DNA of 64,000 nt, taken from contig JAISHI010000014.1 in NCBI GenBank assembly GCA_031262595.1, positions 11,276 to 75,275 on the forward strand. Reading direction: 5' to 3'. Made by a program: the position numbers and the translations under genes. This document shows positions 5,922-50,626 of this stretch, piece by piece. This DNA comes from Christensenellaceae bacterium. Its GTDB lineage: Bacteria; Bacillota; Clostridia; Christensenellales; UBA1242. Under the pieces are notes generated by a model, which was not told where the DNA came from, ran no database searches, and saw only the letters and a program-made list of their open reading frames with translations. The stretch's first letter is position 1. Every line of letters starts with the position of its first letter.

Positions 5922-6479
5922 ATGAAAAAAGTTTTACGAACGTTAATAGTTTTAATCATCGTATTGTGTGCGCCGTTGATGTTGGTAGCGTGTGAAGGCA
6001 AGCAATCTTTTGCCAAACATAAAGGTATCTACACATTAACATCTATTGATGTTGTCGTTACAGATTTAGGGGGTCTAGGGAAAAAAGGAGGTCTCCAATA
6101 CTTCAATGATGTCCTCAAGTGGAACATCTTACAACATGCAAGAAGTGTTTGTGCAGGCGGATTTCTTGCAATTACTGACGACGGGAAATTCATAACAAAA
6201 ATATTCACCTTCGATAATGCCTATTCTGGAGTTTTGCAAACCATTCCAACTGGTGGTATTGGAAGCGATTTTGTTATCGGGGAAGAATATATAACATTCT
6301 ATGAATATAATAACAACCAACAACGAGTGCCATACCTACAGTTACAATATAGTGCAAATAAAATAGTCTACACGATTGATGACCCGTATACTCTAGGTGT
6401 ATGGTCAGGGGATACAGAAGGTGCTGAATATAGTTATGTATTAACATTTACAAAAGAAATCACTTCAATTAGTGTATAA
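5922..6479 (+). CDS. lipoprotein of unknown function (185 aa)
   Basis: Signal peptide with lipobox MKKVLRTLIVLIIVLCAPLMLVAC|EG. The GGAGG SD sits 8 nt upstream. CpG-poor composition, unlike the flanking genes. The 5895 start in the ORF track lies inside the terminator hairpin, so I reject it. Confidence 0.7.
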   Translation: MKKVLRTLIVLIIVLCAPLMLVACEGKQSFAKHKGIYTLTSIDVVVTDLGGLGKKGGLQYFNDVLKWNILQHARSVCAGGFLAITDDGKFITKIFTFDNAYSGVLQTIPTGGIGSDFVIGEEYITFYEYNNNQQRVPYLQLQYSANKIVYTIDDPYTLGVWSGDTEGAEYSYVLTFTKEITSISV

Positions 6480-27147: not shown

Positions 27148-27176
27148 ATTATATCATGCCGCGCTATAATAGCCAA
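27148..27176 (-). promoter_or_regulatory. putative recD2 promoter TTGGCT-17-TGaTATAAT, 8 nt from the ATG
   Basis: -35 at 27171-27176 and -10 at 27148-27153. The extended TG overlaps the TGA stop of the giant ORF. There is no SD. Confidence 0.4.
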
Positions 27177-30100
27177 TAAACTTTTGTTGATATTCGGATT
27201 TAACAGGTGTTGTGTCCACTAAAAATGGCGATTCAGAATATGTAAATGCCTCGTTAAGCCCTTCACTACTTGAGAAATTCCCCGAGTAGGTATTATCGCC
27301 GAACGCAGTAGACACTCCGTTCCAATCCTTTACCGCGCCGACAAAAGTTTTTCCGATAGAATAGCCGATAATTCCGCCCCTATAAAGCCCCGAGCTTACC
27401 GTTGGTTTGCTGTCGTTATTCCCACTTTGCCCGAAAGCGTTATTCGAAACGTCGCCGCCGTTGTTAAAACTTACGACCCCGCCGACAATAAGCGCGTCCG
27501 TCGTGCCGATTGCGCCGTTAATTACGATATTACCATCGACAACGCCATAGTTATACCCAACAATTCCGCCGAGGATAATGCCGTGTGGATCGCCTTCTAT
27601 GGTTTTAATAAGATTTCCGTTATTAAGGGTTATTATTACATCGCCGTCTTGGGTCGAGGAGTTAACCTCGCCGAAGTTTATGCCGACAATTCCGCCAGTA
27701 AAGAACGGCGTTATTGCGCCTGCCGTAAAGGTTAGCGCACCAGAATTTATTTTCGATATGACGATTTTTTCGCCGAGAACGCCCGCGAATCCGCCAGCAA
27801 CTTCCGCCGAGATGTTATTCCCCGCCTTTAGCGTTATGTTTTTGATATTATTTAATTCATCTATCTCGCTATTATTGAGAACTTCGCGGCTTACGAAAAC
27901 CGTTCCGAAAACGCCGCCCGAGATATTCCAAGTATTTTTAACGGTTAAGGCGTTGCGCTCGTCGGTATTCTCGTCCGCGTATTCGTTAATTAAATCTAGG
28001 TTTAAATAACTAGCCGCATCGGTAAACTTAAAGCCTACCGCGCGGTCGACAGTCGATTGCATCTTAACGCTTATGTTTTCGATTCGCTCATCGCCGGTTA
28101 AAGTCACCTCACCAACAAGCCCTCCAACGATATGCGCACCGCGAAGGTTCCCCGCCTCGATATTAACATCAACGATACTCGAACCTATACTCATTCCCGC
28201 TAAAACGCCCGCGTAAGTCGATTGGATATACATCGCGCTGCCAGTCGTTATTGTTTTAATCGTAAGGTTTTTAACGACAGCGTTATCAAGTTTGCTGAAA
28301 AGCCCGAAACTATATAACCCGAGTTCCGCGTCGCTCTCCGCGTTTTCCAAGCTTCCGCCGTCAACCGAATAATAGTTATTATAGTTGAAGATTCCGCCTT
28401 GCGGAACAGACGGCGAAAGGCTAAACTCACTAATCGTAAACCCGTTTCCGTCAAGCGTCGAGTCTTTTAACGTCGTTTTATAGGTTTGAAGCGTATTTAG
28501 CCCGACGAACCCGCCCGTCGCGGACGCCGCCGGCGTTAGTTCGTTTAACTTAATGTTCCTAACGAGCCGCATATGCCCAGTAAAGACCGCGTTATCGTAA
28601 GACGGAACGGAAGCGGCTCCGCCATCTCTGCGGTTTTTATCGTCTTCTTGCGCGCCCGAGCCGATATAGATAAGCCTGTTGAATTGCTCGCCGCTTGTTA
28701 TTAAGATTGGGTTGATTTTCGAGCCTAGGCTATACCCAACAACATAATTAAGAATTGGCAAGCCTTGTTGCGTAAATGTTCCGCTCTCCTCGCGCATCGA
28801 AACCGTTATATAGTTCGCGGAAATGAGCCTTGGGCCGAACTCCGTCATGCGCCAAACGCCATAATCGTCGTCGTTGCTTATACTATAACTTTCGAACTTC
28901 GTTATGTCGATAGTGTCGTCCTCCAAAAGCCGAGCGGCGCCAATCGTTGATATGGTTGTTGGGGTTATGGAGTTGTTCGTTCCAGCCTCGCTCGGCATAT
29001 TATTGTCCAAGCCATAAAAGTCCCCATACCCTTCCGCGACCGTCGCCTCAAACGCAACGTTCGCGATACAATTATTAACCGCACTCCCTTTATATAAGAA
29101 GCCGCTCGCCCTGTTCGCGCCCTCGACGACGATTTTTATCTCCGCTAAACAATCGTTAATCGTTCCGCGATTTTCGTACGCGAACCCTGACGTATAACCG
29201 GTTCTCGTTCGGATGCTTCCGTATAAGAGTTTTAAGGTTTCGGAGTTTCTTTGGGACGATTCGCCTTGGATATACGAAGCCGAGATAACCGCGCCCGCGT
29301 TATTCCGCCCAACAAAACCCGCCGTATAATGAACAATACTCGATTGCCCGCCGGTAAAGTTAAAGGAGGTTTCCGCATCGTTGTTTATATTTCCGTCGCG
29401 GAAGAAACTCGTCGTTATATAGCCGTTATTTATTGCGACGAAACCCGCCAAGATGACTTCATTTAGCGTTTTTGTCGTAGCGCCTGTCGCATAATTCGAA
29501 ACAGAAATATCAATTAAAACTCGGCTGTTTGAAATCGCGCCTGTTGTTCCGTTTTGCCCGACAAGCCCACCCGCGTTGAGGCTTATCCCCGCATTCGAAA
29601 CCCGAAGGTCGATTTTCGCGCCCGCACTCGACGCCGCGCCGTTAAAGATATAGGCGGATTGGTCGTAATTGGCTGTAATTTGTCCGTTCGGGAATTGTCG
29701 CTCCGAAAGAACCGCGCAGTTCGTTATAATACCGTTATTAACGCCCGCAATCGCGCCGAAGTTAACAGTCGCGCTCTTATTTCCAAAGTTATATAGGTCA
29801 ACGACAAGCAAGCCTTGTTTCGTTGCATCTTGTTGGTTCGGGATAACGACTTGGACGTTCTTAACGACGCTATTCTCACCAACGCTCGAAAATAAACCGA
29901 TATTATATTCGCCTCTGGCGTTCATTTGCGCGATATTAAATGATTGGATATATATTTTATAGTTATTTCCGTCGATGCTCGCATCATTAAACGCAAATGG
30001 AACATAATTCGTCAAAGTTATGTTGCTCATGAGGATATAATGCTTATTGTCCGCGATATTCATGTCGCTTAAATATCCTGCGAAGTTATCGCTCGTAAGG

Positions 30101-33100
30101 ATTATTGGGTTGTCCTCGTCGCTTGTTGTTCTGGTTATTATATTGAAATTTATCGATGAGCGCGCTCCGCCCTCGGCAACTATATAAGGAACGTTCGAGT
30201 TCTCATACGAAAGCCCAAGTTCCGCGCGAAGCGTATTCCCGCTCGAACTTGCCATAACCGAGATTATATATTTGCGCCCATTAGAAACGCCCATTCGATA
30301 ACTTAAATTATATTCGCTGCTAACCCCGTAAAGCCTACTGTCCGTATCGCTATAATCGAAGCTGCCGTTATTTAAAAGGAACTGCTCGCCGGTATACGCC
30401 CCGAACCAACGCACAAGTTCGCCGCTGTTGAGGCTATTCGTAAATTTTTGCATCACTGCGTTTAAGGTTTTCTCGAACGCTTTATAGTCTGCCGTATTCG
30501 AAGCTCCGATAATTCCATTCTTAGCCGAGATGAAGTTAGGTTCAAGCCAAACTTGTTGTTTATTATTGTTCATTAAGTAAATCGTATTGCTAGAAATATC
30601 AGTTAATGAATAGCCCGAAACGGTAAAGAGAACAGGTTTAATTACTAGATATTTATGTTGCGTTGCTTGCGCGAAATCGTCGTTTAAAGTATAGGCGAAA
30701 GTTATCCTAATTTCTTTATTAAGTAAGCTTTCGTCAATCGAATTTATCTTTAAAATATAACCCTGCCTATCCGCCGTTGATTGAGCCTCTAATAAAATCA
30801 AATCTTCTATCGTTTCCGACACGCCATCAACAGAAACTGTTGGGTTGCCCGCCATTTGCGCGTTGGTTAGGCTAACGTAAAGTTCGGTTTCAGTTCCTAG
30901 CGCTTGATAGCCAATTTGCCCGTCGCTCATCCATTTTCCGCAGTAGTTTACCGAGAGCCCCGGCTTTTCAGCGAGGTAAATTTTATGCGTAGCGTCTAGC
31001 GTATATTTCTCTTCACCGTCGAAACAATTTAACTTTATCGAAAGATTAAATGTTGAGTTTTGTTGCGGACGCATCGTTGGAACGAAGTTTTGGGTATGAT
31101 GGAACGGGCTTGGGAGCAGTTCCATTGCGAAATAGAAGCAACCGTTCCAACCGAAAGTTTGCCCATTAACCGTCGAAACTTGCTTAGCCGTAAAAGTTGG
31201 GCCGCGCGTTTCCGAAGCTACTCCACCTAAACCGCTGTTATTGCTTTCGCCGAGAGAGAGCGGAATATATTGTTTCGCGACTTCGTCATAAATCATTTGA
31301 GTAAAGTAAATTGTCCAATATTCATAGATAGGTTTATTTTTTATATCGTTGCCACGGCTATCTTTTTCGTAGCCGACAAATTGCTCGTAAACGTCCGCCG
31401 AAACCGAAACGCCATCGATAGGCGACGCATAAGGAACCGCCGTTATCCGCATAAGCCCTTTAAGCCCTTCGCCATTATAAAGGATGCTTGGGTTTTGCGT
31501 TTCCGCGCCGCTTTGAAGCCTTAAAGAATTATCCTCGAACGTTTCAACATCTGCGAAAACACCGGCATCGACGGTATCAACCCGACTTGTAAAGAGGCTG
31601 AAAGGTGTTTGCGCGCGAAGAGGATTGTTTGTCGATGGCGCGTTATTTAGCGCGTTCGGGCGAATTTCCGTCGCGGTTATGTTGCCCGCGAATTGCGAAA
31701 CTGCCGTCGCTAGCCCACCGTTATTTATAATTTCCCTATAACTAAGTGAATTATAAAAATCAGGGTTAATTAAAACGTTAATCGAGATTTTAAACCAATG
31801 TTTTTCATAAATAAAGTCGCCGCCGGGAACATCCTCGCTCTTTTCAAGCGTTAACGCGAAAGCAAGCGCATAGCCGTTCGTAATTTTTACATAAGAAACG
31901 TTATCGTCATGATAAACGTCGTTTGGTCGCGCACTCCTAATAAAGTTTTCCGCGCTATCCCAATTAGTAGTATTTGAGTTTACGAACAAATTCTTTATCG
32001 TATTTAGTTGCGACGAATTTAAATCGAATTTTAATATATCCGTTAATTTTAGGTTCTCATAAGTTCGGGTTGTTATATCACTTATAACGCTGCCTGTTAT
32101 GATTGCCGCCGCGGAAGAATCAAAAACGGATTCCGATTGGTCGAGGGTTAACTCGGTAGCTCCTGATTGAATTCGCGCGATAACTTCGGTTTTAAGCCCT
32201 ATTAAATAATGATCAATAAATTCGTCCCAAACACCATTGCCGTTCGCATCATAATAGGGAATATACGTAAATTTATAATCGCCGACCGGCAACGAAGAAG
32301 CGATTGCGTTCAACGCCCTATTATCATACTCGTCGCCGCTGTTATAAAGGGTTCCGCCTATGTCGTCAATTGTCGCGCGAATACTCCAACCCTCCGACGA
32401 CAAAGTTGCGTTAACGCTAAATTCTTGCCCGCGCCGAACGCTAAATGGGGTTTTGCCGCCAAAGTTATACGGGTCGTTCGCCATAAGCGATTTATACCCA
32501 ACGCGCCCGATGCCAGCCGCAAAAATATCGATATATTCAATAGAAGGGATAACCGCGACTTTTAAAGTTTTGATTATGGTGCCGCCCGCGCTCGAATTGC
32601 GGAATTCTATCTCGAAATTACCCGTCCCGTTAACTTCAAAATACCAACTAACCTCGCCGCGCGACGAATCGGACTTAATTCTTGCTAAGGCGCGCGAACT
32701 TAAATCCGCAAGAATCCAATTAGGTTGAATTTCATAGGAATGATACGCGGAAAGGTTCGCGTCTATATCTTCCTTAAAAATATCATCGAAATAATAACGG
32801 TTTGCGCGAACTGCCGAACCTTGTTGCTCTCCGCCGGAATAGAAAACCGCGATATCCGAAGCACCTAACTTCATAATATGGTTAAAGCCGTTCGCGTTAT
32901 TATAAGTTTTGTTAAGCGTAGGAAAACTATCTTTTAAGGTAAGCGCGGAACGCACCGGCGCATCCGAGCCCGGGTCCTCTTCTCCCATAAGCCCCGGCGC
33001 AGAGCCTTTCGGCGACCATTGCGTATATATATAGATAGGAATTTGCATCTCAACGAAATGCAACTCGCCAAACTCGTCGTCCTCAAATACGTTATCCTCG

Positions 33101-36100
33101 GCATATATTGTTAGAATAATATTCGCGCCGTTCGCTTGCCCAACGCTACCATAACCGCCATTACCCGACCAATACAATACGTTTTTCGACCCCTCCATTA
33201 CATAAAGGGTTTTAGACTTAGAAGAATTATACGTACTACCCTCATGCGGCGCTTCGGAAACGACGGCTGTTATACTTTTATTAAGCGCAGCGCTTGGATA
33301 GATATTATAATCGAGTTCGAGCGTAAATGGAGTAGTTTCATAACCGTAATCAACGCTTATTTCAATACAATCATTAGCCATCGAAACTTCTGGGCCAAGA
33401 AGCCTGCCGCCGTCATAAGCGGACGTTATCTTTTTTATGCCGAGCCCCTCGATTTGAACCGCGTCCTTAACGTCAACGTCTACATAAACGTCATAAAAGT
33501 TCGTAAAATTATAAACGAAATCTTCGTCGCCGTAGATATTTTCGAAGGTTTGGGTTATGTTGAATTGGAGTTTTTGTTTTGTTTCCGAGCGTAAAAGCCC
33601 CGTCAACTTATAAGAAGTTATATTAGTAAGCGCCGTTCCGCTCGCTGCTGGCGCGTAGTTATTGGCTCCTATTTTTTGTTCTAACTCAAAATTTTGCGAC
33701 GGATAAATCGGCGTTATACTTAAATAACTATCCTCCGCAATCCCGCCACTCGCGAATTTTAATCCTAATGTTAACTCTTTCGACGCGTTCGATTTCCCCA
33801 TAGTGCCAAGGCTCGCTAGCGTATAAAGCTCTATATTATTCAACGAAGGTGAAACATTCGTTAAGATATCTAAAACAACTAGATTTATTTTTAAACCCTC
33901 ATGCGAAAGATTTCCAAAAACCGCATCATTAACCGCCGAAACACTATAAGTTATTGTGCCCGTTGCCGTCGCGGTTATGATTGCACCTTCAACCCTAGTT
34001 TCAACGCCGCTTTTTGTTATGATTATGTTCTCGACCCAAATACCCGCGCCATTAGAAGGCGTTTTTTGGACAACAATCTCATAATTCCCGCCCTTTTTAA
34101 CAAAAACAGTTAGTTCGGGCTTTCCGCCAATAATATCCGTTTCGGTTTTTAAAACTTCTCCGCCAGCGCGCGCGACAACTTGCGGCGTTATAGAATCTAA
34201 CTCTTCCCAAACCCTAACGCGCATATGACGCGAGATACGGTTAAAATAAACGAGGGTAAAGCCGTAATCGACGCCTTGGGTTAACTTTTGGTTAACTTTT
34301 ATATCGTAAGCGAGGGTTTGAGTTGTATCGCCGCTTATATAATCCGCCGTAAACTTATCCTCGCTGTTCGCGTCCCAAACAATTTTAACGCCTTTCTCAT
34401 AAAGTTTTCTATCGCGCTTTTCCTCGTCGGTCGAGTTTATAAAGTCAATATCGTCGCTATCAACACTTATCCCCATCGAAACAGCGCGGGTTGGGTCGTT
34501 TAATAAATCTATAACGTTTCCGGTTGGCGTTATAGTCAACGCATCGTCGCTAACGAACCGATAAGCCTCAAGCGGAATTTTAAATTTACAAACCGAAGTA
34601 TTAGAAGAACCGCTCGGAACGTTTTTTATAACTAAAGTTAGGTATTTATTAAGTATGTCGCCCGAATCTTGACTATTAAGGCTTATCGCGAAGGTATTAT
34701 TATAAAAGAAACCGCCGCCGAGTTTTGTGTTCTTCGATGGGTTAATCATAGTCCAAACGCCGTTTTCTAGTATCTCGATTTTTAAACTTCTCGAAATGTC
34801 CATCAATGTAGAACCATCATAAAGCTCGAATAAAATATTCGCGTTATGCGGGCGCGCCTGAGTGTTTTGGAGTATATAGCCGTCCTTAGTTTCTAGAGAG
34901 AAGATTGTTCGCGGAAGCGGGTCGCTTGAATCTTGCGGAACATAAAAAACGTTAAGCCCCTGCGCGTCGTCATCATCGTCGGAATAATAACCGATATTAT
35001 TTTGTTCTTTAATAACCGCCATGTTCGCCGCCTCATCTAACTCATTCGCCCTTAAAACCCCGTCCTTAAACATATTTAAGACAACAACTTCCATAACATG
35101 GGTCTTTGTTAGATATGAATAAAACCCGTCCGCGCTATTTAGCGTTATAGTTCCGTTCTCGGTCTCTATTTTCGGCGTAAATCTAAATTCAACAAAACAA
35201 GCCCCTATATCGTTAGAGATAATGCTAACTTTTTTTTCTTTAAGGTCCTCAACTCTAACTTTCGAGCTATTAACATTTATATTCCCGAGAGTATCGCGGC
35301 TGTCGCTCGCGCTAACGGAATAAGCTAGCCTATTCCCGACAAAACCTGTTAGGTCTATATTTTCATGGTCTCTTAAATCGCCCCCGTCCGTTTCGGCATT
35401 CTTAACAAGCGTAATTTGGTTGGGGATACTCGGGTTGCCGTATGGTTCGATAACATAGACTTTAAAATTAACGAACTTTGTTGGGTCGCTACTAAGGCGC
35501 GCACGAAGATTAACGACACTCGGTGCGCTAGCCCCAACAATAAATTTATTGCCCTCTATCTGGCAGCCACTGTCCCCGGTTAAAATCTCGAAATCGAGTT
35601 TTTTATCCGTCGGGGTATAACTTTCCGTTTTAAAATTATCAACAGAATAAAAATTAAAGTATGCGCTATCTAATAAAAGTTCGCCGTGCCCGTTGCTAAC
35701 CTCTTCGCCGCTGCCGAGTTTTTGAACCGCGAAATATCTCTCGTCTTTTTGCTCGAAATCTTTCGCAATTATATTAACCGAAACCTCGATAGTTTGAGCT
35801 AAACCGCCTGCATTCGAAACAACAGTTATGTCCGTTTTTCCGCCCTTAATCCCTGCGGTTATGCGCATGTTTTGGTTGTCTATCATATTAACAGTCGCGA
35901 CGTTCTTATCCGAAACGCTTGCCGTCCAGCCAGTATCAACATTTTTCGGCATTTTATCGATTGTTATCCGGACGTCTTGATAGTCTATTCCGTCATGAAC
36001 GAGTATTCCATTTTCGTTTTTAAGTTTTAAATCTATCTCAACTTGCGTTCGCGAAACGCTCATACTCGCTTTAGAATAAGGGTTGGGAGTGTTCGAAGAA

Positions 36101-36177
36101 AAGATGGCGATAAGCCCAATAATGGATGCCAACCCGACGGCGGCAACTATTAAAATAAGCAACCTTCTTTTGTTCAT
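27154..36177 (-). CDS. giant (3007 aa) membrane-anchored extracellular protein with Ig-like (Big_2-like) N-terminal domains and C-terminal GLUG-motif beta-helix repeats
   Basis: N-terminal signal anchor MNKRRLLILIVAAVGLASIIGLIAIF and a Big_2-like segment (...VATVNMIDNQNMRITAGIKGGKTDITVVS...). The last ~900 aa carry many GG[LIV][VI]G repeats (GGLVGQNG, GGLVGEV, GGIVGINFG, GGIVGYNYG, GGVVSFNNG, GGIIGYS). There is no LPXTG. GGGGGA SD. Confidence 0.85.
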   Translation of the reverse strand: MNKRRLLILIVAAVGLASIIGLIAIFSSNTPNPYSKASMSVSRTQVEIDLKLKNENGILVHDGIDYQDVRITIDKMPKNVDTGWTASVSDKNVATVNMIDNQNMRITAGIKGGKTDITVVSNAGGLAQTIEVSVNIIAKDFEQKDERYFAVQKLGSGEEVSNGHGELLLDSAYFNFYSVDNFKTESYTPTDKKLDFEILTGDSGCQIEGNKFIVGASAPSVVNLRARLSSDPTKFVNFKVYVIEPYGNPSIPNQITLVKNAETDGGDLRDHENIDLTGFVGNRLAYSVSASDSRDTLGNINVNSSKVRVEDLKEKKVSIISNDIGACFVEFRFTPKIETENGTITLNSADGFYSYLTKTHVMEVVVLNMFKDGVLRANELDEAANMAVIKEQNNIGYYSDDDDDAQGLNVFYVPQDSSDPLPRTIFSLETKDGYILQNTQARPHNANILFELYDGSTLMDISRSLKIEILENGVWTMINPSKNTKLGGGFFYNNTFAISLNSQDSGDILNKYLTLVIKNVPSGSSNTSVCKFKIPLEAYRFVSDDALTITPTGNVIDLLNDPTRAVSMGISVDSDDIDFINSTDEEKRDRKLYEKGVKIVWDANSEDKFTADYISGDTTQTLAYDIKVNQKLTQGVDYGFTLVYFNRISRHMRVRVWEELDSITPQVVARAGGEVLKTETDIIGGKPELTVFVKKGGNYEIVVQKTPSNGAGIWVENIIITKSGVETRVEGAIITATATGTITYSVSAVNDAVFGNLSHEGLKINLVVLDILTNVSPSLNNIELYTLASLGTMGKSNASKELTLGLKFASGGIAEDSYLSITPIYPSQNFELEQKIGANNYAPAASGTALTNITSYKLTGLLRSETKQKLQFNITQTFENIYGDEDFVYNFTNFYDVYVDVDVKDAVQIEGLGIKKITSAYDGGRLLGPEVSMANDCIEISVDYGYETTPFTLELDYNIYPSAALNKSITAVVSEAPHEGSTYNSSKSKTLYVMEGSKNVLYWSGNGGYGSVGQANGANIILTIYAEDNVFEDDEFGELHFVEMQIPIYIYTQWSPKGSAPGLMGEEDPGSDAPVRSALTLKDSFPTLNKTYNNANGFNHIMKLGASDIAVFYSGGEQQGSAVRANRYYFDDIFKEDIDANLSAYHSYEIQPNWILADLSSRALARIKSDSSRGEVSWYFEVNGTGNFEIEFRNSSAGGTIIKTLKVAVIPSIEYIDIFAAGIGRVGYKSLMANDPYNFGGKTPFSVRRGQEFSVNATLSSEGWSIRATIDDIGGTLYNSGDEYDNRALNAIASSLPVGDYKFTYIPYYDANGNGVWDEFIDHYLIGLKTEVIARIQSGATELTLDQSESVFDSSAAAIITGSVISDITTRTYENLKLTDILKFDLNSSQLNTIKNLFVNSNTTNWDSAENFIRSARPNDVYHDDNVSYVKITNGYALAFALTLEKSEDVPGGDFIYEKHWFKISINVLINPDFYNSLSYREIINNGGLATAVSQFAGNITATEIRPNALNNAPSTNNPLRAQTPFSLFTSRVDTVDAGVFADVETFEDNSLRLQSGAETQNPSILYNGEGLKGLMRITAVPYASPIDGVSVSADVYEQFVGYEKDSRGNDIKNKPIYEYWTIYFTQMIYDEVAKQYIPLSLGESNNSGLGGVASETRGPTFTAKQVSTVNGQTFGWNGCFYFAMELLPSPFHHTQNFVPTMRPQQNSTFNLSIKLNCFDGEEKYTLDATHKIYLAEKPGLSVNYCGKWMSDGQIGYQALGTETELYVSLTNAQMAGNPTVSVDGVSETIEDLILLEAQSTADRQGYILKINSIDESLLNKEIRITFAYTLNDDFAQATQHKYLVIKPVLFTVSGYSLTDISSNTIYLMNNNKQQVWLEPNFISAKNGIIGASNTADYKAFEKTLNAVMQKFTNSLNSGELVRWFGAYTGEQFLLNNGSFDYSDTDSRLYGVSSEYNLSYRMGVSNGRKYIISVMASSSGNTLRAELGLSYENSNVPYIVAEGGARSSINFNIITRTTSDEDNPIILTSDNFAGYLSDMNIADNKHYILMSNITLTNYVPFAFNDASIDGNNYKIYIQSFNIAQMNARGEYNIGLFSSVGENSVVKNVQVVIPNQQDATKQGLLVVDLYNFGNKSATVNFGAIAGVNNGIITNCAVLSERQFPNGQITANYDQSAYIFNGAASSAGAKIDLRVSNAGISLNAGGLVGQNGTTGAISNSRVLIDISVSNYATGATTKTLNEVILAGFVAINNGYITTSFFRDGNINNDAETSFNFTGGQSSIVHYTAGFVGRNNAGAVISASYIQGESSQRNSETLKLLYGSIRTRTGYTSGFAYENRGTINDCLAEIKIVVEGANRASGFLYKGSAVNNCIANVAFEATVAEGYGDFYGLDNNMPSEAGTNNSITPTTISTIGAARLLEDDTIDITKFESYSISNDDDYGVWRMTEFGPRLISANYITVSMREESGTFTQQGLPILNYVVGYSLGSKINPILITSGEQFNRLIYIGSGAQEDDKNRRDGGAASVPSYDNAVFTGHMRLVRNIKLNELTPAASATGGFVGLNTLQTYKTTLKDSTLDGNGFTISEFSLSPSVPQGGIFNYNNYYSVDGGSLENAESDAELGLYSFGLFSKLDNAVVKNLTIKTITTGSAMYIQSTYAGVLAGMSIGSSIVDVNIEAGNLRGAHIVGGLVGEVTLTGDERIENISVKMQSTVDRAVGFKFTDAASYLNLDLINEYADENTDERNALTVKNTWNISGGVFGTVFVSREVLNNSEIDELNNIKNITLKAGNNISAEVAGGFAGVLGEKIVISKINSGALTFTAGAITPFFTGGIVGINFGEVNSSTQDGDVIITLNNGNLIKTIEGDPHGIILGGIVGYNYGVVDGNIVINGAIGTTDALIVGGVVSFNNGGDVSNNAFGQSGNNDSKPTVSSGLYRGGIIGYSIGKTFVGAVKDWNGVSTAFGDNTYSGNFSSSEGLNEAFTYSESPFLVDTTPVKSEYQQKFIGYYSAA

Positions 36178-40211: not shown

Positions 40212-40285
40212 TGGAGCGGGTGAACGGAATCGGACCGTCGCAACAGGCTTGGAAGGCCAGTGTTCTACCATTGAACTACACCCGC
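40212..40285 (-). tRNA. tRNA-Gly (anticodon UCC), encoded CCA, with a non-canonical T-loop
   Basis: My fold gives GCGGGTG-TA-GTTC-AATGGTA-GAAC-A-CTGGC-CTTCCAA-GCCTG-TTGC-GACGG-TCCGATT-CCGTT-CACCCGC-T-CCA. Anomalies are C at position 55 and a U28:U42 mismatch. Confidence 0.8.
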
Positions 40286-44407: not shown

Positions 44408-45133
44408 TTATCGGTTGTCAAACTCGTTAAGCGCCTTCATTATGATTCCGGCGGCGACAGCAACGTTTAGGCTCTCGGCGAAGTCGTTCATTTTTATCGT
44501 GAAGGTTTTATGCGGAAGGGTTTTTAGTTCGGGCGAGATGCCTTGCCCTTCGTTTCCTAATATAAGCCCGAAGTTCGGGTCGTTTAGCGCGAACTCTTCG
44601 CCGTTTAAATCGGCTAAGATAAGTTTTTCGCCGAACGCGCCGCTTTTAAATTCGGCGATAAACTCGTTATAAGTTTTTTCTATAATATTTATAAATAACG
44701 ACAGCCCCGCCGAAGCGCGGATTGCCTTCGCCGAAAACGCGTCCGCCGAGTTTATTGAAATAACTGACTTAAACCCGAACGCAACCGCGCTACGAATAAT
44801 CGCGCCGACGTTCGCGGGCTCTTGGATATTATCTAAAACCAAATACGGAAAAGTTATCACGCCCGAATTCGGGATTTTCGCGACAGCGAGAACGCCTTTC
44901 GGGGTTTTAAATTCCGTTATTTCGTCGAAAAGTTTGTTCGATAAAACTTCGTTCGGCTCTATTTCGCCGCGATAATCCTCGCTCGCGAAAACGCCCGCCG
45001 CGAACCCTTTATTAACGCACTCGCGAACGAGTTTCTCGCCCTCAACGATACAAAGCCCCGACTTATCGCGCGCCTTTTTCATTTTAAGCGAATTTAATAA
45101 CTTAACTTTTTCGTTCTCACGCGAGGTAATCAT
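44408..45133 (-). CDS. SpoU/TrmH-family RNA 2'-O-methyltransferase (RlmB-like)
   Basis: Has the LDNIQEPANVGAIIRSAVAFG motif and the C-terminal SLNVAVAAGI knot motif. Confidence 0.8.
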   Translation of the reverse strand: MITSRENEKVKLLNSLKMKKARDKSGLCIVEGEKLVRECVNKGFAAGVFASEDYRGEIEPNEVLSNKLFDEITEFKTPKGVLAVAKIPNSGVITFPYLVLDNIQEPANVGAIIRSAVAFGFKSVISINSADAFSAKAIRASAGLSLFINIIEKTYNEFIAEFKSGAFGEKLILADLNGEEFALNDPNFGLILGNEGQGISPELKTLPHKTFTIKMNDFAESLNVAVAAGIIMKALNEFDNR

Positions 45134-47360
45134 ATTTAACCCTCCCCTCGCTCATCTCCGCGGTTATCTCGCGAACGCCTTGGTTCGATATAATAATTTC
45201 GGCGACTTTGTCCTCGACTTCTTTTTGGATAACGCGTTTAATAGGGCGCGCACCGAATTCTGGGTCATAGCCTTTCTCGACGATAAAATCAACGAGGTCA
45301 TCGTTATACTTAAACTCGACGCCTTTCCCCGAGAGCATTTTAACGAATTTTTCGAGTTGTAATGCGGCGATTTTCTTAACGTTTTCTTTCGAGAGCGAAT
45401 TAAAGACGATAATATTATCGATGCGGTTTAGGAACTCGGGTTTGAAATGCTTTTTCATGCCCGCGAGTATACTTTCCTCTTCGACCATAAGCGACCTATC
45501 CTCGCCGAACCCAATCGCCGTCGTTTTCTTAATCTCGCTAACGCCAACATTACTCGTCATAACGATAATCGCGTTTCTAAAACTCGTTTTTTTGCCGTGG
45601 CTGTCGGTTAGATGCCCCTCGTCGAGAATTTGCAACAAAAGGTTATAAACGTCGGCGTGCGCCTTCTCGATTTCGTCGAAAAGAACGATACAATAAGGGT
45701 TCTTCCTAACCTTTTCGCAAAGAACGCTCGCATCGTCATAGCCGACATACCCCGCCGGCGAGCCGATGAGTTTCGAAACGCTGTGCGATTCTTGGAACTC
45801 GCTCATGTCGAGTTTAATAAGCGACTTCTCGCTACTAAAAACCGTTCGCGCAAGGACTTTACAAACCTCAGTTTTCCCGACGCCGGTTCGCCCTAGGAAA
45901 AAGAAACTACCTATCGGTCGGTTCGTGTCACCGACGCCAGCCCGCGCGCGCCTAATCGCGCTCGCAATCGCATCGCAAGCCTTATCTTGTCCGATTATAC
46001 TCTTTTTAAGTTCGTCGGCGAGGTTGTTTAGACTCTCGCTCTCATCCTTCGAGATTTTCGAAACAGGAATTTTCGTTATACAAGAAACGACTTCGGCAAT
46101 ATCGTCGCTCGTTATCGCGGCGCGCTCGCCCCCAGCTCGGATTTTGGCTTTACTGCAAGCCTCATCGAGGACGTCGATTGCCTTATCGGGTAAATTCCTA
46201 TCATTTATATAACGGTCACTAAGGCTAACCGCCGCAACAATCGCATCGTATCCAATCTCGACTTTATGGAAACTTTCGAACCCCTCTTTAAGCCCAGCGA
46301 GAATCTCAATCGCTTGCTCCGTTGACGGCGGATTAACAATAATCGGCGCGAAACGGCGTTCTAACGCAGGGTCTTTTTCAATATATTTGCGGTATTCTTC
46401 AAGCGTCGTCGCGCCAACGGTTTGGAGGTCGCCGCGCGCGAGTTTCGGTTTTAAAATTTCGCCGATACCCATGCCGTTTTCCTTGTCGCCTGTCGCGGTC
46501 GCGATTGTGTGGAGTTCGTCGATAAATAAAATTATATCCTTTCGCTCCTCGCAAAGTTTTAATAACCCTTGAAGGCGGTTTTCGAGTTCGCCGCGATATT
46601 TCGTTCCCGCCATAAGGCTTCCAATATCAAGCGAAAAAATGATTTTATTTCTAAGAATTTCCGGAACGTCGCCGCTAATAATTCGCAGCGCAAGCCCCTC
46701 GACAATCGCACTCTTACCGACGCCAGCCTCGCCGATTAGAACGGGGTTGTTCTTAGTTTTTCGGCAAAGGATTTCGATCATTCTTTGCGTCTCGTCGTCG
46801 CGCCCGATGATATTATCAATCTTCCCTTGTCGCGCCTTTTCCGTTAAATCTATTCCTAAATTCAAAACGCTCTCTGGCAGTTTTTTTTCGTCGTTTTCGC
46901 GCGGATTTACGGAGGCACCCCCCTCAAATTCCGCGTTATTTGCGCTGTACGGCGTTTTCACCTCTTCTTTAAAGTTTTCTAGTCCGAGCGCAGCCAGCGA
47001 TTTACGCGATACGGCGTCGGCTAAACCCGAACGAATTTCGTTTAAAATAAATTTCGTTTGCGCTATTTTTTCCGCCAAAACGAATAACAAAACTTCGCTA
47101 ACAATCGCGCTGAGCCCGAACGCTTCTGTATATTTTTGCGCGGTTAATAAAACGTCGCTATAACCCTCGCCAGTTTCCGAAACGGAGCGGATTTCGGCAA
47201 TCGCGTTCGCCGAAACGCCTAGCGATTTTAGAATTTGTCCGGCGACGCAACCTTCATTTTTCGCGCAAGCAAAAAGCAAATGATAAGGGCGAACCTCGTT
47301 GTCGACCGTATACTGCCCTGCAATCCCAATAATCTTAATAACATTTTTCGTTAACTTCAT
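45117..47360 (-). CDS. clpC: Clp/Hsp100 ATPase, ClpC-like N-domain but no M-domain (ClpA-like architecture)
   Basis: 747 aa. Clp_N repeats, D1 Walker A GEAGVGKSAIVEGLA, D2 GRTGVGKTEVCKVLA. D1 runs straight into ...AKIRAGGERAAITSDDIAEVVSCITKIPVSK with no coiled-coil/UVR insert. Confidence 0.8.
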   Translation of the reverse strand: MKLTKNVIKIIGIAGQYTVDNEVRPYHLLFACAKNEGCVAGQILKSLGVSANAIAEIRSVSETGEGYSDVLLTAQKYTEAFGLSAIVSEVLLFVLAEKIAQTKFILNEIRSGLADAVSRKSLAALGLENFKEEVKTPYSANNAEFEGGASVNPRENDEKKLPESVLNLGIDLTEKARQGKIDNIIGRDDETQRMIEILCRKTKNNPVLIGEAGVGKSAIVEGLALRIISGDVPEILRNKIIFSLDIGSLMAGTKYRGELENRLQGLLKLCEERKDIILFIDELHTIATATGDKENGMGIGEILKPKLARGDLQTVGATTLEEYRKYIEKDPALERRFAPIIVNPPSTEQAIEILAGLKEGFESFHKVEIGYDAIVAAVSLSDRYINDRNLPDKAIDVLDEACSKAKIRAGGERAAITSDDIAEVVSCITKIPVSKISKDESESLNNLADELKKSIIGQDKACDAIASAIRRARAGVGDTNRPIGSFFFLGRTGVGKTEVCKVLARTVFSSEKSLIKLDMSEFQESHSVSKLIGSPAGYVGYDDASVLCEKVRKNPYCIVLFDEIEKAHADVYNLLLQILDEGHLTDSHGKKTSFRNAIIVMTSNVGVSEIKKTTAIGFGEDRSLMVEEESILAGMKKHFKPEFLNRIDNIIVFNSLSKENVKKIAALQLEKFVKMLSGKGVEFKYNDDLVDFIVEKGYDPEFGARPIKRVIQKEVEDKVAEIIISNQGVREITAEMSEGRVKYDYLA

Positions 47361-47432: not shown

Positions 47433-47762
47433 ATGCTTTGCGAGATTTGTGGTCAAAATATTGCGTCGCTTATACGCGGCGATTCTTTCGGAAATGAAAT
47501 TCGCGTTTGTATGCGTTGTTTAGATAAGCCGATTTTCTCGAAAGCGGATTTATTAGCCGACCTTATCGCGAACGATTTCGATATTTTTAGCGCGCCGATG
47601 ACGCCGCTAACTCCAAAACCTAAGGTTTGCCCTTGTTGCGGATATTCTTTCGAGGATTTTAGGGAGTTCGGCGAATTGGGTTGCAGCGAATGTTATAAGG
47701 CGTTCGCGGCGGAGTTAGCGCCCGTTATCGCGCGGCTTAAAAAGGCGGTTTATGATGAATAA
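47433..47762 (+). CDS. mcsA: McsA-like zinc-finger protein (activator of protein arginine kinase)
   Basis: 109 aa. CEICGQ...CMRC and CPCCGYSFEDFREFGELGCSECYKAF, as in McsA. Overlaps mcsB. Confidence 0.7.
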   Translation: MLCEICGQNIASLIRGDSFGNEIRVCMRCLDKPIFSKADLLADLIANDFDIFSAPMTPLTPKPKVCPCCGYSFEDFREFGELGCSECYKAFAAELAPVIARLKKAVYDE

Positions 47763-48744
47763 CATAACAAATATCGTCGTTTCGTCGCGGATAAGGCTCG
47801 CCCGCAATATAGAAAAAGTTCCGTTCGCGATAGATGACCCGCAATTTTTCGAAAACATCGCGCTCGGGATAAAGCAATCTTTCCCTGATTTTTATTCTAC
47901 GAAAGTTGCGGATATCGCGCCCGAGCTTGCAAGTTCCTTATTCGAGCAACATCTAATAAGTAAAGAAATCCTCGCCCACGAAAACTACGCGAGCCTTGTC
48001 GCGAACAAGAAAAACACGGTTTCGATTATGCTGGGCGAAGAGGACCACGTTCGCATCCAAGTTATAAAACAAGGATTTAATTTAAGCGAAGAATATCGCG
48101 AGGCGAGCGAGATTGCCGCCGCGCTCGAGAAAAAATTTAAAATCGCGCGGTCAAAGGAACTCGGATATATAACGAAATGCCCGACGAACTTAGGTTCGGG
48201 CATGCGCGCGAGCATTATGGTTTTCTTGCCGGGTCTTTGTTTAACCGGGAAGATTTTAAGCGTTAAAAACCTCTTCGGCGAACTTAAAATAACCTTTCGC
48301 GGCGAGAAAGGCGAAGGCAGCCGCAGCGACGGGTTTATGTATCAAATCTCGAACCAAGCCCATATTGCTCTGCGCCCAGAAGAGATTATCGACATGGTTA
48401 TAAAGGCGACGACGATAATTTGTGAGGCGGAACTCGCCGCCCAAGCGGAACTTTTTAATAAGGATAAGTTGGTTTTGCGCGATAGAGTTATGAAGAGCCT
48501 CGGGATTTTAACTTACGCCGAACTAGTTTCGCCCGACGAGGCAATCGAACACTTAACGAACTTAAAACTCGGCTGTTCTCTTAATATAATCCGCTTTAAA
48601 AACAACCGCATAATCGACGATTTAATTTTTACAACCCGCCCGCATACGTTATTTAGCCGTTTCGCAAAAAACGGTGCTCTCCCCGACCCGAACGCCGTCC
48701 GCGCAAAAGATATTAAATCGGTTATAAAGCAGAATTTACTTTAA
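47752..48744 (+). CDS. mcsB: protein arginine kinase McsB
   Basis: 330 aa. Phosphagen-kinase signature CPTNLGSGMRAS, plus EEDHVRIQ. Confidence 0.85.
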   Translation: MMNNITNIVVSSRIRLARNIEKVPFAIDDPQFFENIALGIKQSFPDFYSTKVADIAPELASSLFEQHLISKEILAHENYASLVANKKNTVSIMLGEEDHVRIQVIKQGFNLSEEYREASEIAAALEKKFKIARSKELGYITKCPTNLGSGMRASIMVFLPGLCLTGKILSVKNLFGELKITFRGEKGEGSRSDGFMYQISNQAHIALRPEEIIDMVIKATTIICEAELAAQAELFNKDKLVLRDRVMKSLGILTYAELVSPDEAIEHLTNLKLGCSLNIIRFKNNRIIDDLIFTTRPHTLFSRFAKNGALPDPNAVRAKDIKSVIKQNLL

Positions 48745-49595
48745 ACAATTCCATAACTCGCAAAAGCCTCAAACCCGCCGAGTTCGTCTATATATTGCCT
48801 AGCCTCCTCCGCGCAATCCGCGAAGGATTTTTTAATTTCTTCGCGAACTTCCCCACCCTCAAAATCTTTAACGAAAAACATAATTTCCTCGTCGCCGATT
48901 GCGCAATAAGTTTCGACGTAAGCGTTCGCGTAAATTTTCGAGATTAAATTCGAAACAACGCCGAGCGTTAGGTCGCTCTTGCTGAGGTCTTTGCCGTGCA
49001 GCCCGTTTGGGTTAAAGAGCGGCTGGTCGTTGCCGAGTTTGCGGTTTGTGCAACCCGTATCAACTTGGTAGCCGCCCTTCCAAAACCCGAGCGGATTTAT
49101 TTTATAAGTTTCGAACGGTAGGTTTTCGCGCGCCCAAGTTAAGAACTCTTCTTCAGTTGCGTTTGATTGGCAAATTACCGCGTGGTTATTATCGAAATCA
49201 AAAATATATTTGCCGTCGCTTGGGAACTTTTCGCCGATTTTTCGCGCGAACTCTGTCGCCTTTTCATATTCCTCGTTCCATTTCGCCTTAAAAACGCCGT
49301 TGTCGCCGCATTTTATCCCGCCTTTTTGGTTATCCGCGAGATGTTTATCTTGTTCCGCGATAATGAGTTCGGTCTTAACGTCCTCGCCAACGATTCGGTC
49401 GACAATAGCGTCGACTTCCTCTTCGGTAAACCTCGCGTTGCTCTCGATAATAACCTTACAATGCCCATGCCCTAAAAGAACCTCAACCGCGCATTTTGGG
49501 TTTTTCGTTTCCTTATATGCTAGGTCGATAATCGCGCCCGCAATCGCGTCCGCGATTTTATCAGGATGGAACTTATTTACTTTTTCGATTTTCAT
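48741..49595 (-). CDS. compact S-adenosylmethionine synthetase (MetK) homologue, 284 aa
   Basis: Colinear MetK motifs: FHPDKIADAIAGAIID (GHPDKICDQ), CGDNGVF (GAGDQGLMF), INPLGFWKGGYQVDTGCTNRK (INPTGRFVIGGPxGDxGLTGRK), HGKDLSKSD (SGKDPSKVD), YCAIG (SYAIG). Preceded by an S-box riboswitch and a GGAG SD. Confidence 0.6.
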   Translation of the reverse strand: MKIEKVNKFHPDKIADAIAGAIIDLAYKETKNPKCAVEVLLGHGHCKVIIESNARFTEEEVDAIVDRIVGEDVKTELIIAEQDKHLADNQKGGIKCGDNGVFKAKWNEEYEKATEFARKIGEKFPSDGKYIFDFDNNHAVICQSNATEEEFLTWARENLPFETYKINPLGFWKGGYQVDTGCTNRKLGNDQPLFNPNGLHGKDLSKSDLTLGVVSNLISKIYANAYVETYCAIGDEEIMFFVKDFEGGEVREEIKKSFADCAEEARQYIDELGGFEAFASYGIV

Positions 49596-49622
49596 TTGTT
49601 TTTCTCCTTTTCGTTGGCGAAT

Positions 49623-49753
49623 AAAAAACTCACCATTACGATGAGTTTATTTTTAAAGAAATAACGCTCATCGTTAGCCATTCGCACCTTACTTTTCAGC
49701 AGGTTGCGGCGTGGTCATCGGGGCTAATCCCTCGCACGCTCTTTATGATAGTC
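49623..49753 (-). promoter_or_regulatory. SAM-I (S-box) riboswitch with terminator expression platform
   Basis: The minus strand reads ...AUCAUAAAGAGCGUGCGAGGGAUUAGCCCCGAUGACCACGCCGCAACCUGCUGAAAAGUAAGGUGCGAAUGGCUAACGAUGAG..., matching the S-box core (AGAG, GAGGGA, CCCGAUGA K-turn, GCAACC, GGUGC-AAU). The terminator is ACUCAUC-GUAAU-GGUGAGU plus U6. The antiterminator pairs ACGAUGAG with CUCAUCGU. Confidence 0.8.
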
Positions 49754-49755
49754 GT

Positions 49756-49784
49756 TTTATAACATTTTGTTTTCGGCTTGTCAA
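49756..49784 (-). promoter_or_regulatory. promoter of the S-box leader (TTGACA-17-TATAAA)
   Basis: -35 at 49779-49784 (overlapping the stop of the upstream kinase gene) and -10 at 49756-49761. Confidence 0.55.
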
Positions 49785-50626
49785 CACTTTACAGGATAGT
49801 CGAAGTCGGCGTGTTCGCGCGTCATGTATTCCATATAATCCGCCTCAACATACTTCCACATTTTGTTTAACTCGGTTAGTTCTTTGCGCTTAAATTTAAG
49901 CCCTGAGATTTTTTCGAAGCTCTCGATAAGCATTTCGTTAAACTCCTTATCCATTCGCCCAGTAAGCCGCCCGAGGTCAACGAACGGGCTCGAACTCGAA
50001 ACAAACGCATAATCTAAAACGCCGCAAAGCCGTTTCTTTTTATCGATAATTAAATTACAAGGGTTTAGGTCGCCATGAACGAGAACGAGTTTCTCGCCCT
50101 CTTGTTTTTTTAGCGTGTCCAAAACCGAATAATCATAATCCTCGTTGCCGTTAATATATGAGAGTTCAGTTAAGAAAGTTGAGAGCGTTTCCGTCGTTTT
50201 AATTTTATCCGTTAGGTTTTGGATATCAAAAATATATTTCGCGATATCGCCCGCAATAACTTGCTTTTCGGCGGTCGTCAAAGTTTCGTAAACGTCATTA
50301 AGCGGCTCGCCGGAAACTAGCTCATGAAGGCTAAACGCGCGCCCGTCTTTTAAAGCCTTCTTATATATAGGCGTTTTTAGGACGAGATATTGTTTTATTT
50401 CTGTCGTAGCTTCTATTTCTTTTTCAAGCGCGCGCATAAAAAAATCGGTTCGCGGAAAACGCGCAACAAAAGTTTTTTTACCTAAACCTAAAAAACCTTT
50501 TTTATAAGCGTAATAAACGTAGTTCGTCCGCCCCGTTGCGATTTTCTCGGCTGCGTAAACGCCCTTTATGTTCTCGCGAACAATCGCGCAAAAATCATCG
50601 TTTAAATCAAAAAAGTTTTTTTCCAT
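49781..50626 (-). CDS. aminoglycoside/choline-kinase-like phosphotransferase family protein
   Basis: Catalytic loop VHGDLNPCNLIID and a downstream VLDYAF motif, typical of the APH/ChoK fold. Confidence 0.7.
   Translation of the reverse strand: MEKNFFDLNDDFCAIVRENIKGVYAAEKIATGRTNYVYYAYKKGFLGLGKKTFVARFPRTDFFMRALEKEIEATTEIKQYLVLKTPIYKKALKDGRAFSLHELVSGEPLNDVYETLTTAEKQVIAGDIAKYIFDIQNLTDKIKTTETLSTFLTELSYINGNEDYDYSVLDTLKKQEGEKLVLVHGDLNPCNLIIDKKKRLCGVLDYAFVSSSSPFVDLGRLTGRMDKEFNEMLIESFEKISGLKFKRKELTELNKMWKYVEADYMEYMTREHADFDYPVKC

Follow-up and report, generated by a model that had tools for sequence, protein, structure and literature searches.

A SAM-I riboswitch without helix P4 upstream of a compact MetK homologue in a Christensenellaceae bacterium

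A 64,000-nucleotide (nt) stretch of contig JAISHI010000014.1 (assembly GCA_031262595.1), hereafter the window, from a Christensenellaceae bacterium carries on its minus strand an S-box (SAM-I) riboswitch followed by the gene for a 284-amino-acid (aa) homologue of MetK, the methionine adenosyltransferase (MAT) that synthesizes S-adenosylmethionine (SAM). In this arrangement, SAM probably turns off transcription of a gene for a compact but active SAM synthetase. From the architecture of the RNA and its conservation, the fold of the protein, the conservation of its residues, the distribution of its family and the sharing of its leader, all documented below, we infer that the RNA would bind SAM and regulate the gene in vivo, and that the protein would have MAT activity.

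Results

A SAM-I aptamer in which two nucleotides replace P4

A cmscan search of the 64-kb window with Rfam finds a single riboswitch, an RF00162 (SAM-I) match at positions 49751–49665 of the minus strand that scores 51.7 bits (E = 5.6e-09), above the gathering score of 44.4. RF00162 is again the top match in a permissive rescan of a 300-nt region, and SAM-I is the best member of its clan; a clan relative (SAM-IV or SAM-I/IV) scored lower and was suppressed. The 87-nt aptamer (49665–49751) reaches 73.7 bits with R1, a covariance model of the P4-less architecture described below. The original prediction had read an S-box leader at this place, and the Rfam match recovers its elements there.

The aptamer departs from the family model at P4. 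In the cmscan alignment, 2 nt fill the ∼20 model positions of this helix, with 18 of the 20 removed, such that the four-way junction of SAM-I is not formed: P1 to P3 are present, and P4 is replaced by 2 nt. No full, P4-bearing SAM-I alignment was returned by cmscan, which agrees with the earlier suspicion that the helix is missing.

P1 joins a 5′ strand, CUAUCAU (49745–49751), of which only UCAU pairs contiguously, to the 3′ strand AUGAGCG (49665–49671). The alignment gives four contiguous pairs (U49748–U49745 with A49671–A49668; UCAU/AUGA), close to the four or five counted by eye in the original prediction, followed by a 2×2 mismatch and a C49751–G49665 pair. Three more outer pairs are possible only if the transcript starts upstream. 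P2 (49709–49739) has the kink-turn nucleotides (..CGA-GGG / CCC-CGAUGAC..), and its AUUAG loop supplies the 5′ strand of the pseudoknot. P3 (49683–49708; CGCA-A-CCUGCU-GAAA-AGUA-A-GG-UGCG) contains the conserved GCAACC / GGUGC core. The joining region J3/4 (49672–49682; AAUGG-CUAA-CG) supplies the other pseudoknot strand, in which CUAA (49677–49674) is complementary to UUAG of the P2 loop (49727–49724); this pairing had been proposed beforehand and is kept in related leaders. Directly after CUAA come CG, the 2 nt in place of P4, and the 3′ strand of P1.

An alignment of 12 leaders, comprising this one and 11 related ones, reveals that the kink-turn and core nucleotides present here (AGAG, GCAACC, GGUGC.AA) occupy invariant columns, with G19, A20 and A34-U35-G36-A37 identical in 12 of 12. 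P1, P2a, P2b, P3 and the pseudoknot are all kept with compensatory changes; for example, one P3 pair is G-C in six leaders and C-G in six, and one pseudoknot pair is U-A in seven and A-U in five. The present aptamer has the lowest Rfam score of the riboswitch-led short-MAT set, compared with 57–67 bits in nine of nine related leaders matched by Rfam, and P4 is absent from all nine.

An antiterminator and a terminator follow the aptamer

A promoter-like sequence precedes the aptamer (49756–49784), consisting of TTGACA (49784–49779), a 17-nt spacer and TG-n-TATAAA, whose −10 hexamer lies at 49761–49756. This putative promoter was read from the letters, because a consensus promoter scan missed TATAAA on account of the A at position 6 of the hexamer. 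The −35 hexamer overlaps the TGA stop (49783–49781) of a co-directional upstream APH-family gene (49781–50626; PF01636). Neither inspection of the sequence nor a terminator scan found a terminator between the APH gene and the leader, and transcripts of the RNase J and APH genes might therefore run on into the riboswitch, in which case P1 would be longer.

Downstream of J3/4, CGAUGAG (49673–49667), composed of CG and the P1 3′ strand, pairs with CUCAUCG (49645–49639) in both the minimum free energy (MFE) and centroid folds to give an antiterminator helix (49639–49673). CUCAUCG is also the 5′ arm of an intrinsic terminator, AAACUCAUCG-UAA-UGGUGAGUUU (49648–49626), which has a 10-bp stem and, together with its U-rich tail, spans 49620–49648. 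Thus the 49673–49667 strand alternates between P1 and the antiterminator, and the terminator/antiterminator choice is mutually exclusive with respect to P1. The terminator/antiterminator pair claimed in the original prediction is recovered by the terminator scan and by the folds, and the same arrangement is present in all 12 leaders. The MFE fold of the leader is well below those of shuffled sequences (z = −3.25). A ribosome-binding site, AAAGGAG (49604–49610), is located 8 nt before the ATG.

An AU hairpin just 3′ of P1 (UUAUUU-CUUUAA-AAAUAA, 49664–49647) had been likened to elements of SAM-IV or SAM-I/IV RNAs. The hairpin does exist, but the likeness does not hold: in the MFE and centroid folds it is the tip of the antiterminator helix and therefore belongs to the expression platform, and the 11 related leaders show no conservation of it. 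With RF00162 the best match in its clan and the kink-turn nucleotides in place, assignment to SAM-IV or SAM-I/IV was rejected.

The 284-aa protein has a MAT fold and retains MetK active-site residues

The gene downstream (48741–49595, minus strand, ATG at 49595) encodes the compact MAT homologue MDR0975718.1, whose NCBI record is titled ‘MAG: S-adenosylmethionine synthetase [Christensenellaceae bacterium]’, where MAG denotes a metagenome-assembled genome. The Pfam domains of MetK are recovered in part: the N-terminal domain PF00438 scores 37.2 bits against a cutoff of 33.1, and the central and C-terminal domains (PF02772 and PF02773) are undetected in the protein by the Pfam sequence scan. Structural repeats corresponding to these two domains are nevertheless present in an AlphaFold model built on 38 relatives (pLDDT 88.2, pTM 0.88). 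The order of secondary structure elements in the model, assigned with DSSP, is three beta-alpha-beta-beta-alpha-beta units, which is the MAT fold. A Foldseek search of the PDB with this model yields S-adenosylmethionine synthetases for all of the best 50 matches (E ∼1e-16, probability 1.0, query-normalised TM-score 0.63–0.74), and phmmer against PDB sequences returns MATs only, weakly and in two stretches.

Aligned to E. coli MetK by hhalign, the family profile gives 97% probability over 260 columns. On the basis of hhalign and MAFFT alignments, the protein is identical to E. coli MetK (residues in mature numbering) at H14, D16, K17, E42, E55, Q98, D118, D163, K165, D238, R244, K245, K265, K269 and D271, where the assignment of D163 and K165 follows hhalign and strand topology, MAFFT having placed the DGK motif of the family on another E. 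coli DGK. F230 is replaced by W in this protein and in the family. The equivalents of catalytic and substrate-binding residues, including this W, are invariant in 84–86 of 86 family members, and the MetK motifs HPDK, CGDNG, INPLG..GG..D.G.TNRK, GKDLSK.D and AIGD are conserved.

Relative to MetK, ∼100 residues are lost: the loop at E. coli residues 83–95, four residues of the gating loop, the 251–262 loop, residues 285–297 and the last ∼35 residues. The segments 125–161 and 167–233 are also shortened, in their helices and in a hairpin. Neither the core repeats nor the active site is affected. The protein accordingly shares with E. coli MetK (PDB 1fug and 7ll3; TIGR01034; PF00438, PF02772 and PF02773) the fold and the order of catalytic residues, and differs from it in length (284 versus 384 aa), in being only 23% identical, and in falling far under the TIGR01034 cutoff. 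The view that this is a MetK homologue about 100 residues short, with its motifs in order and inter-motif segments deleted, is upheld by the AlphaFold and Foldseek results and by the hhalign alignment.

Riboswitch-led short MATs in other Firmicutes

Among the best 80 GTDB loci encoding related short MATs, an S-box lies directly upstream of the gene in 12 (L003, L004, L007, L009, L014, L022, L024, L028, L036, L058, L065 and L067), and all 12 are in non-phage surroundings, for example near mutL or rplU-rpmA. S-boxes were called with Rfam and the covariance model, which take in the core variant CCAACC/GGUGG; by this means none was detected on phage copies, whether in 80 IMG/VR loci or in seven phage-context metagenome loci.

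In three of these loci (L009:5848–11755, L024 and L028) genes for an ECF transporter come after the S-box and short MAT, and L009 has two further genes behind the transporter, for SAM hydroxide adenosyltransferases (PF01887 and PF20257). This gene order is a SAM-centred island, and a second, independent link of the short MAT to SAM. The transporter consists of an S component (PF07155), a CbiQ-type T component and a fused ATPase, the last annotated by eye. The aptamers of L009 and L024 are identical save for the last base, and the only differences in L028 are in the P3 loop and at two other bases; the MAGs carrying these near-identical leaders are nonetheless named as different families.

P4-less S-boxes as a wider class

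A scan of metagenomes with a 23-nt J3/4 motif from the riboswitch-led leaders identified at least 120 stretches. In 80 of the metagenome loci, which were fetched, model R1 finds 84 full-length aptamers of 82–93 nt, as well as a few incomplete or weaker matches. P4 is missing from all 84. Paired cells amount to 95.8%, compared with 35–42% in slid controls, and the covariation score is 0.40, compared with at most 0.09, in an alignment that was itself fitted to the model and whose 3′ part is fixed by the search motif. The pseudoknot is paired in 100% of these metagenomic aptamers, with an AU/UA swap (55 and 22). The P4-less S-box is, on these sequences, a widespread and abundant class in gut and rumen Firmicutes.

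The first genes downstream of these aptamers include short MATs of 260–267 aa, directly in six loci and behind a small open reading frame (ORF) in one more. In seven other loci (L105, L110, L133, L135, L137, L141 and L157) the first gene encodes a MetK of 339–347 aa with all three Pfam MetK domains, 37–39% identical to E. coli MetK and 27–29% identical to the 284-aa protein. These are the closest canonical-type relatives found here, and they share the P4-less leader type; they differ from the 284-aa protein in being 55–60 residues longer and in matching all three domains. They also represent a second, milder shortening of MetK in the same habitats. Since P4-less S-boxes precede these MetKs, this kind of leader appears to control true metK genes in the organisms concerned, which is the strongest contextual argument for the short MAT acting as a SAM synthetase.

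The remaining first genes encode proteins of the N-formylglutamate amidohydrolase (FGase) family, IS1595 transposases, priA and recurrent small ORFs. Families of such small ORFs (70–115 aa) lie directly behind P4-less S-boxes among the metagenome loci L089–L168, for example in L116 (3302–3811), L150 (238–704), L094 (3625–3997) and L118 (8889–9360); they have no Pfam or PHROGs matches, and their motifs include ‘..AEGF.FGD..KPTER..’, ‘..FPFVVD...FWVCESITC.ACA..’ and ‘MDKDVEVMLYRLYDVV..PFGNS’. In L003, L036 and L094, a member of the last of these families separates the S-box from the short MAT. By position, the small ORF families are candidate new members of the SAM regulon.

Some loci hold tandem or repeated riboswitches, with two P4-less aptamers on the same strand, 140–500 nt apart in L102 (8448–8859), L136 (1509–1820), L143 and L155, and ∼3.8 kb apart in L113. 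In L125 the gene immediately behind a P4-less S-box (5932–6017) is priA-like, as annotated by eye, and encodes 774 aa, and a canonical 385-aa MetK is encoded on the same strand ∼4.9 kb further downstream.

The family is mostly phage-borne

The 284-aa protein matches the PHROGs family phrog_1569, labelled ‘unknown function’, from end to end (E = 3.4e-44; residues 3–282 correspond to profile positions 5–335 of 346). A sequence search recovers more than 120 full-length relatives of 260–307 aa, and among the matches listed none exceeds 54% identity to this protein. A profile search of 1.84 billion cluster representatives gives 273 matches at E ≤ 1e-30 and only 2347 at E ≤ 0.001; the short-MAT family is therefore well separated from ordinary MetK. 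Relatives are encoded in at least 580 GTDB species representatives and on at least 558 IMG/VR contigs. Residues C96, N99, W172 and N184 and a C-terminal GGFE motif are invariant and specific to the family.

Clustering of neighbouring genes indicates that the usual neighbours are a VapE-type primase, VRR-NUC, SNF2 helicase, HNH and small terminase genes and then the short MAT, followed by genes for a ParB_N-N6/N4 methyltransferase, Dam, Dcm, the large terminase and the portal. The usual setting is thus a replication, methylation and packaging module of prophages. A second phage setting places the short MAT after PAAR and before a gp25-like sheath initiator and Baseplate_J (L084:5681–7200; L085; L086:5685–7225), an odd site for a metabolic enzyme; these baseplate-cluster copies are among the closest relatives of the 284-aa protein, at 52–54% identity. 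Unlike the gene studied here, the phage copies of phrog_1569 have no riboswitch in the 80 viral and seven phage-context loci, and their neighbours are either the small terminase subunit on one side and DNA methyltransferases on the other, or genes of the baseplate cluster. In 23 of 24 annotated GenBank phage records the gene is labelled ‘hypothetical protein’. Cultured genera such as Enterococcus, Streptococcus, Anaerococcus and Parvimonas carry canonical metK, and among the matches listed they carry the short MAT only as prophage cargo.

In the literature searched for short, viral or minimal MATs that have been characterised, metK as an auxiliary gene is mentioned only at survey level, and no biochemical or structural study of the short-MAT family was found. 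‘metK’ (K00789) is among the commonest phage auxiliary genes in two gut-virome surveys (PMC11283538, PMC12180181), and the genes so labelled are probably of the phrog_1569 type.

Some family members are longer, at 346–415 aa (P0150, P0154, P0157, P0159, P0163 and P0172), owing to lineage-specific insertions of ∼70–100 residues, located after the second helix of the first repeat in most and in the second repeat in P0154. The idea that such proteins (P0150, P0154, P0157, P0163 and others) are evolutionary intermediates was rejected, because the insertions are unrelated to the segments of canonical MetK.

Genomic setting and origin of the chromosomal copy

The gene encoding the 284-aa protein is monocistronic, chromosomal and preceded by the S-box that would control it. 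Its GC content of 46.2%, and of 52.6% at third codon positions, matches that of its neighbours, the clpC, mcsB and RNase J genes. In a neighbour-joining tree (∼260 columns), which is weak evidence, 96 of 100 bootstraps place the 284-aa protein among relatives from phage contexts, and it never groups with other riboswitch-led copies. Descent of the riboswitch and short MAT as a single cassette was rejected, given that riboswitch-linked MATs are monophyletic in 0 of 100 bootstraps. No synteny beyond generic ABC or P-type ATPases is shared between loci in which short MATs and canonical-type MetKs stand behind the same leader type. The simplest reading would be several independent exchanges between phage and chromosome, with the present copy long resident.

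A search of the 64-kb window and of the fetched loci, including the riboswitch-led ones, by tblastn with E. coli MetK revealed no canonical metK, in stretches that are too short to decide whether one exists.

The neighbouring genes clpC-like (45117–47360, minus), mcsA-like (47433–47762, plus) and mcsB-like (47752–48744, plus) were annotated by eye from their translations. The clpC-like gene is divergent from the other two; in Bacillus, ctsR-mcsA-mcsB-clpC form one operon. The mcsB-like gene and the 284-aa ORF converge on stops that share 4 nt, and no terminator separates the two genes. Elsewhere in the window are a 3007-aa ORF (27154–36177, minus) and a tRNA (40215–40285, minus; 66.6 bits) with anticodon loop CUUCCAA, which reads as Gly-UCC and is the only other Rfam match.

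Discussion

A proposed mechanism and its relation to known riboswitches

In the mechanism that we propose, SAM binding would allow P1 and the pseudoknot between the P2 loop and J3/4 to hold CGAUGAG, such that the terminator at 49648–49626 and its U-run would form and transcription would stop before the ORF. When SAM is low, CGAUGAG would instead pair with CUCAUCG in the antiterminator, and transcription would continue into the gene. The product, which keeps the three beta-alpha-beta-beta-alpha-beta repeats of MetK along with its entire active site, would convert ATP and L-methionine to SAM, PPi and Pi. Its family is found chiefly in prophages beside DNA methyltransferase genes; the present copy would be an old chromosomal resident, behind the kind of leader that appears to control metK in related gut Firmicutes. 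With its short P1 and without P4, the switch may require high SAM for termination; we speculate that such a requirement would suit a gene that stays on in most conditions.

The aptamer shares P1, the P2 kink-turn, P3, the pseudoknot and core nucleotides with SAM-I RNAs (T. tengcongensis metF, B. subtilis yitJ and metK leaders), and resembles these leaders also in probably being a transcription-termination OFF switch and in preceding a putative SAM-synthetase gene. It differs from them in having a three-way rather than a four-way junction, 2 nt between the pseudoknot strand and P1, and an unusually short P1. SAM-IV (RF00634) and SAM-I/IV (RF01725) belong to the same clan, have a similar binding core and, as here, no P4 inside the junction. 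SAM-IV and SAM-I/IV RNAs have a second pseudoknot, made by a hairpin located 3′ of P1, and the P2 kink-turn is missing from SAM-I/IV. The present RNA, in contrast, has the kink-turn nucleotides, its 3′ hairpin is the unconserved tip of an antiterminator, and RF00162 outscores the rest of the clan.

Natural members of RF00162 with a very short or absent P4 have already been reported for a group in Actinomycetota, where P4-less aptamers were described as able to function, being SAM-responsive, and were accepted in the family alignment (PMC12714719). Those variants share with the present class the RF00162 core and the reduction of P4. The present class differs from them in belonging to low-GC gut and rumen Firmicutes, in having its own J3/4 motif, GGUGSUAAWGCUWG, and in being tied to MAT genes and uncharacterised small ORFs. 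Thus the riboswitch is of a kind already known, and what is documented here is its commonness in gut and rumen Firmicutes.

Weighing the alternatives

Several observations speak against an active SAM synthetase under a working SAM switch. On the protein side, TIGR01034, the metK equivalog, gives 36.8 bits against a cutoff of 309.4 and covers residues 4–55 only, PF02772 and PF02773 escape detection by sequence, and the short-MAT family is dominated by phages, in which the role of the gene could differ. As for the RNA, P1 has 4 contiguous pairs here compared with 7 in the relatives, and a transcript from the predicted start site may lack the outer pairs, which could make the switch a weak one. 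SAM affinity drops as P4 shortens, according to a passage in PMC12714719 that cites Heppell 2011, and the covariation figures carry the dependence on model and motif noted above.

On one rival view the riboswitch, its P4 lost and its P1 weak, would be a decaying relic that is blind to SAM, with the gene expressed constitutively or by read-through from the upstream APH and RNase J genes. The low Rfam score relative to the other riboswitch-led copies, the short P1 and the lack of a terminator between the APH gene and the leader would all fit such decay. However, every core nucleotide that is invariant in the 12 leaders is present, the pseudoknot, terminator and antiterminator are intact, and P4-less aptamers form a conserved, covarying class of which members have been reported to function (PMC12714719), and we regard a relic as improbable. 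Slightly less credible still is a repurposed MAT fold, acting on another nucleotide or amino-acid substrate, making a SAM analogue for phage DNA modification, or serving mainly as a triphosphatase or SAM-binding protein. Low identity to E. coli MetK, the invariant residues peculiar to the family (C96, N99, N184, W172 and GGFE) and the placement of some phage copies in a baseplate module between PAAR and gp25-like proteins are compatible with a change of function, whereas the residues that contact methionine, adenine, metal and triphosphate are all kept, and regulation by the type of SAM riboswitch that precedes metK genes favours SAM as what the enzyme makes. Between the ‘minimal SAM synthetase’ and ‘repurposed fold’ options left side by side in the original prediction, the former is favoured by the retention of MetK binding residues in 84–86 of 86 members and by the same leader type before canonical-type metK.

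If the protein does make SAM, it might do so as an accessory, phage-derived second synthetase that supplements SAM when the pool is low, with a canonical metK elsewhere in the genome. In our estimation this falls only a little short of an even chance. The family is overwhelmingly phage-borne and, among the matches listed, occurs in cultured genera such as the four named above only as prophage cargo; the protein itself groups with phage copies in the bootstrapped tree, and some riboswitch-led copies occur in islands reminiscent of SAM salvage. Against an accessory role stand the P4-less leaders of the same type that appear to control canonical-type metK in other organisms, and the tblastn result for the window and the riboswitch-led loci, with the limit of length given above. 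The converse proposal, that this Christensenellaceae bacterium has no SAM synthetase besides the 284-aa protein, is one that we can entertain but do not lean towards. No more likely is its fuller form, in which the protein is the sole, essential MAT because a phage-type MAT displaced canonical metK behind the P4-less leader of the lineage, as may have happened independently in at least two other Firmicutes lineages. Were the sole, essential role true, this would be the smallest natural MAT known, and a core metabolic enzyme would have been replaced by a phage auxiliary gene.

Implications

The 284-aa protein represents a compact branch of the MAT superfamily that is uncharacterised and carried mostly by phages, and for which the evidence of function is strong, albeit indirect. 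If active, it would be the shortest MAT described, ∼25% smaller than MetK yet with a full active site; from it one would learn what the MAT fold can do without, and it might offer a small scaffold for the production of SAM and SAM analogues. Riboswitch control would provide independent genomic evidence for the function of phrog_1569, and points to phages raising the supply of SAM for their own DNA methyltransferases. The occurrence of the same gene as phage cargo and, in several lineages, as a putatively SAM-regulated chromosomal gene suggests traffic between phage auxiliary genes and core metabolism. Finally, the small families of unknown function found under P4-less S-boxes are candidate players in SAM or methionine biology.

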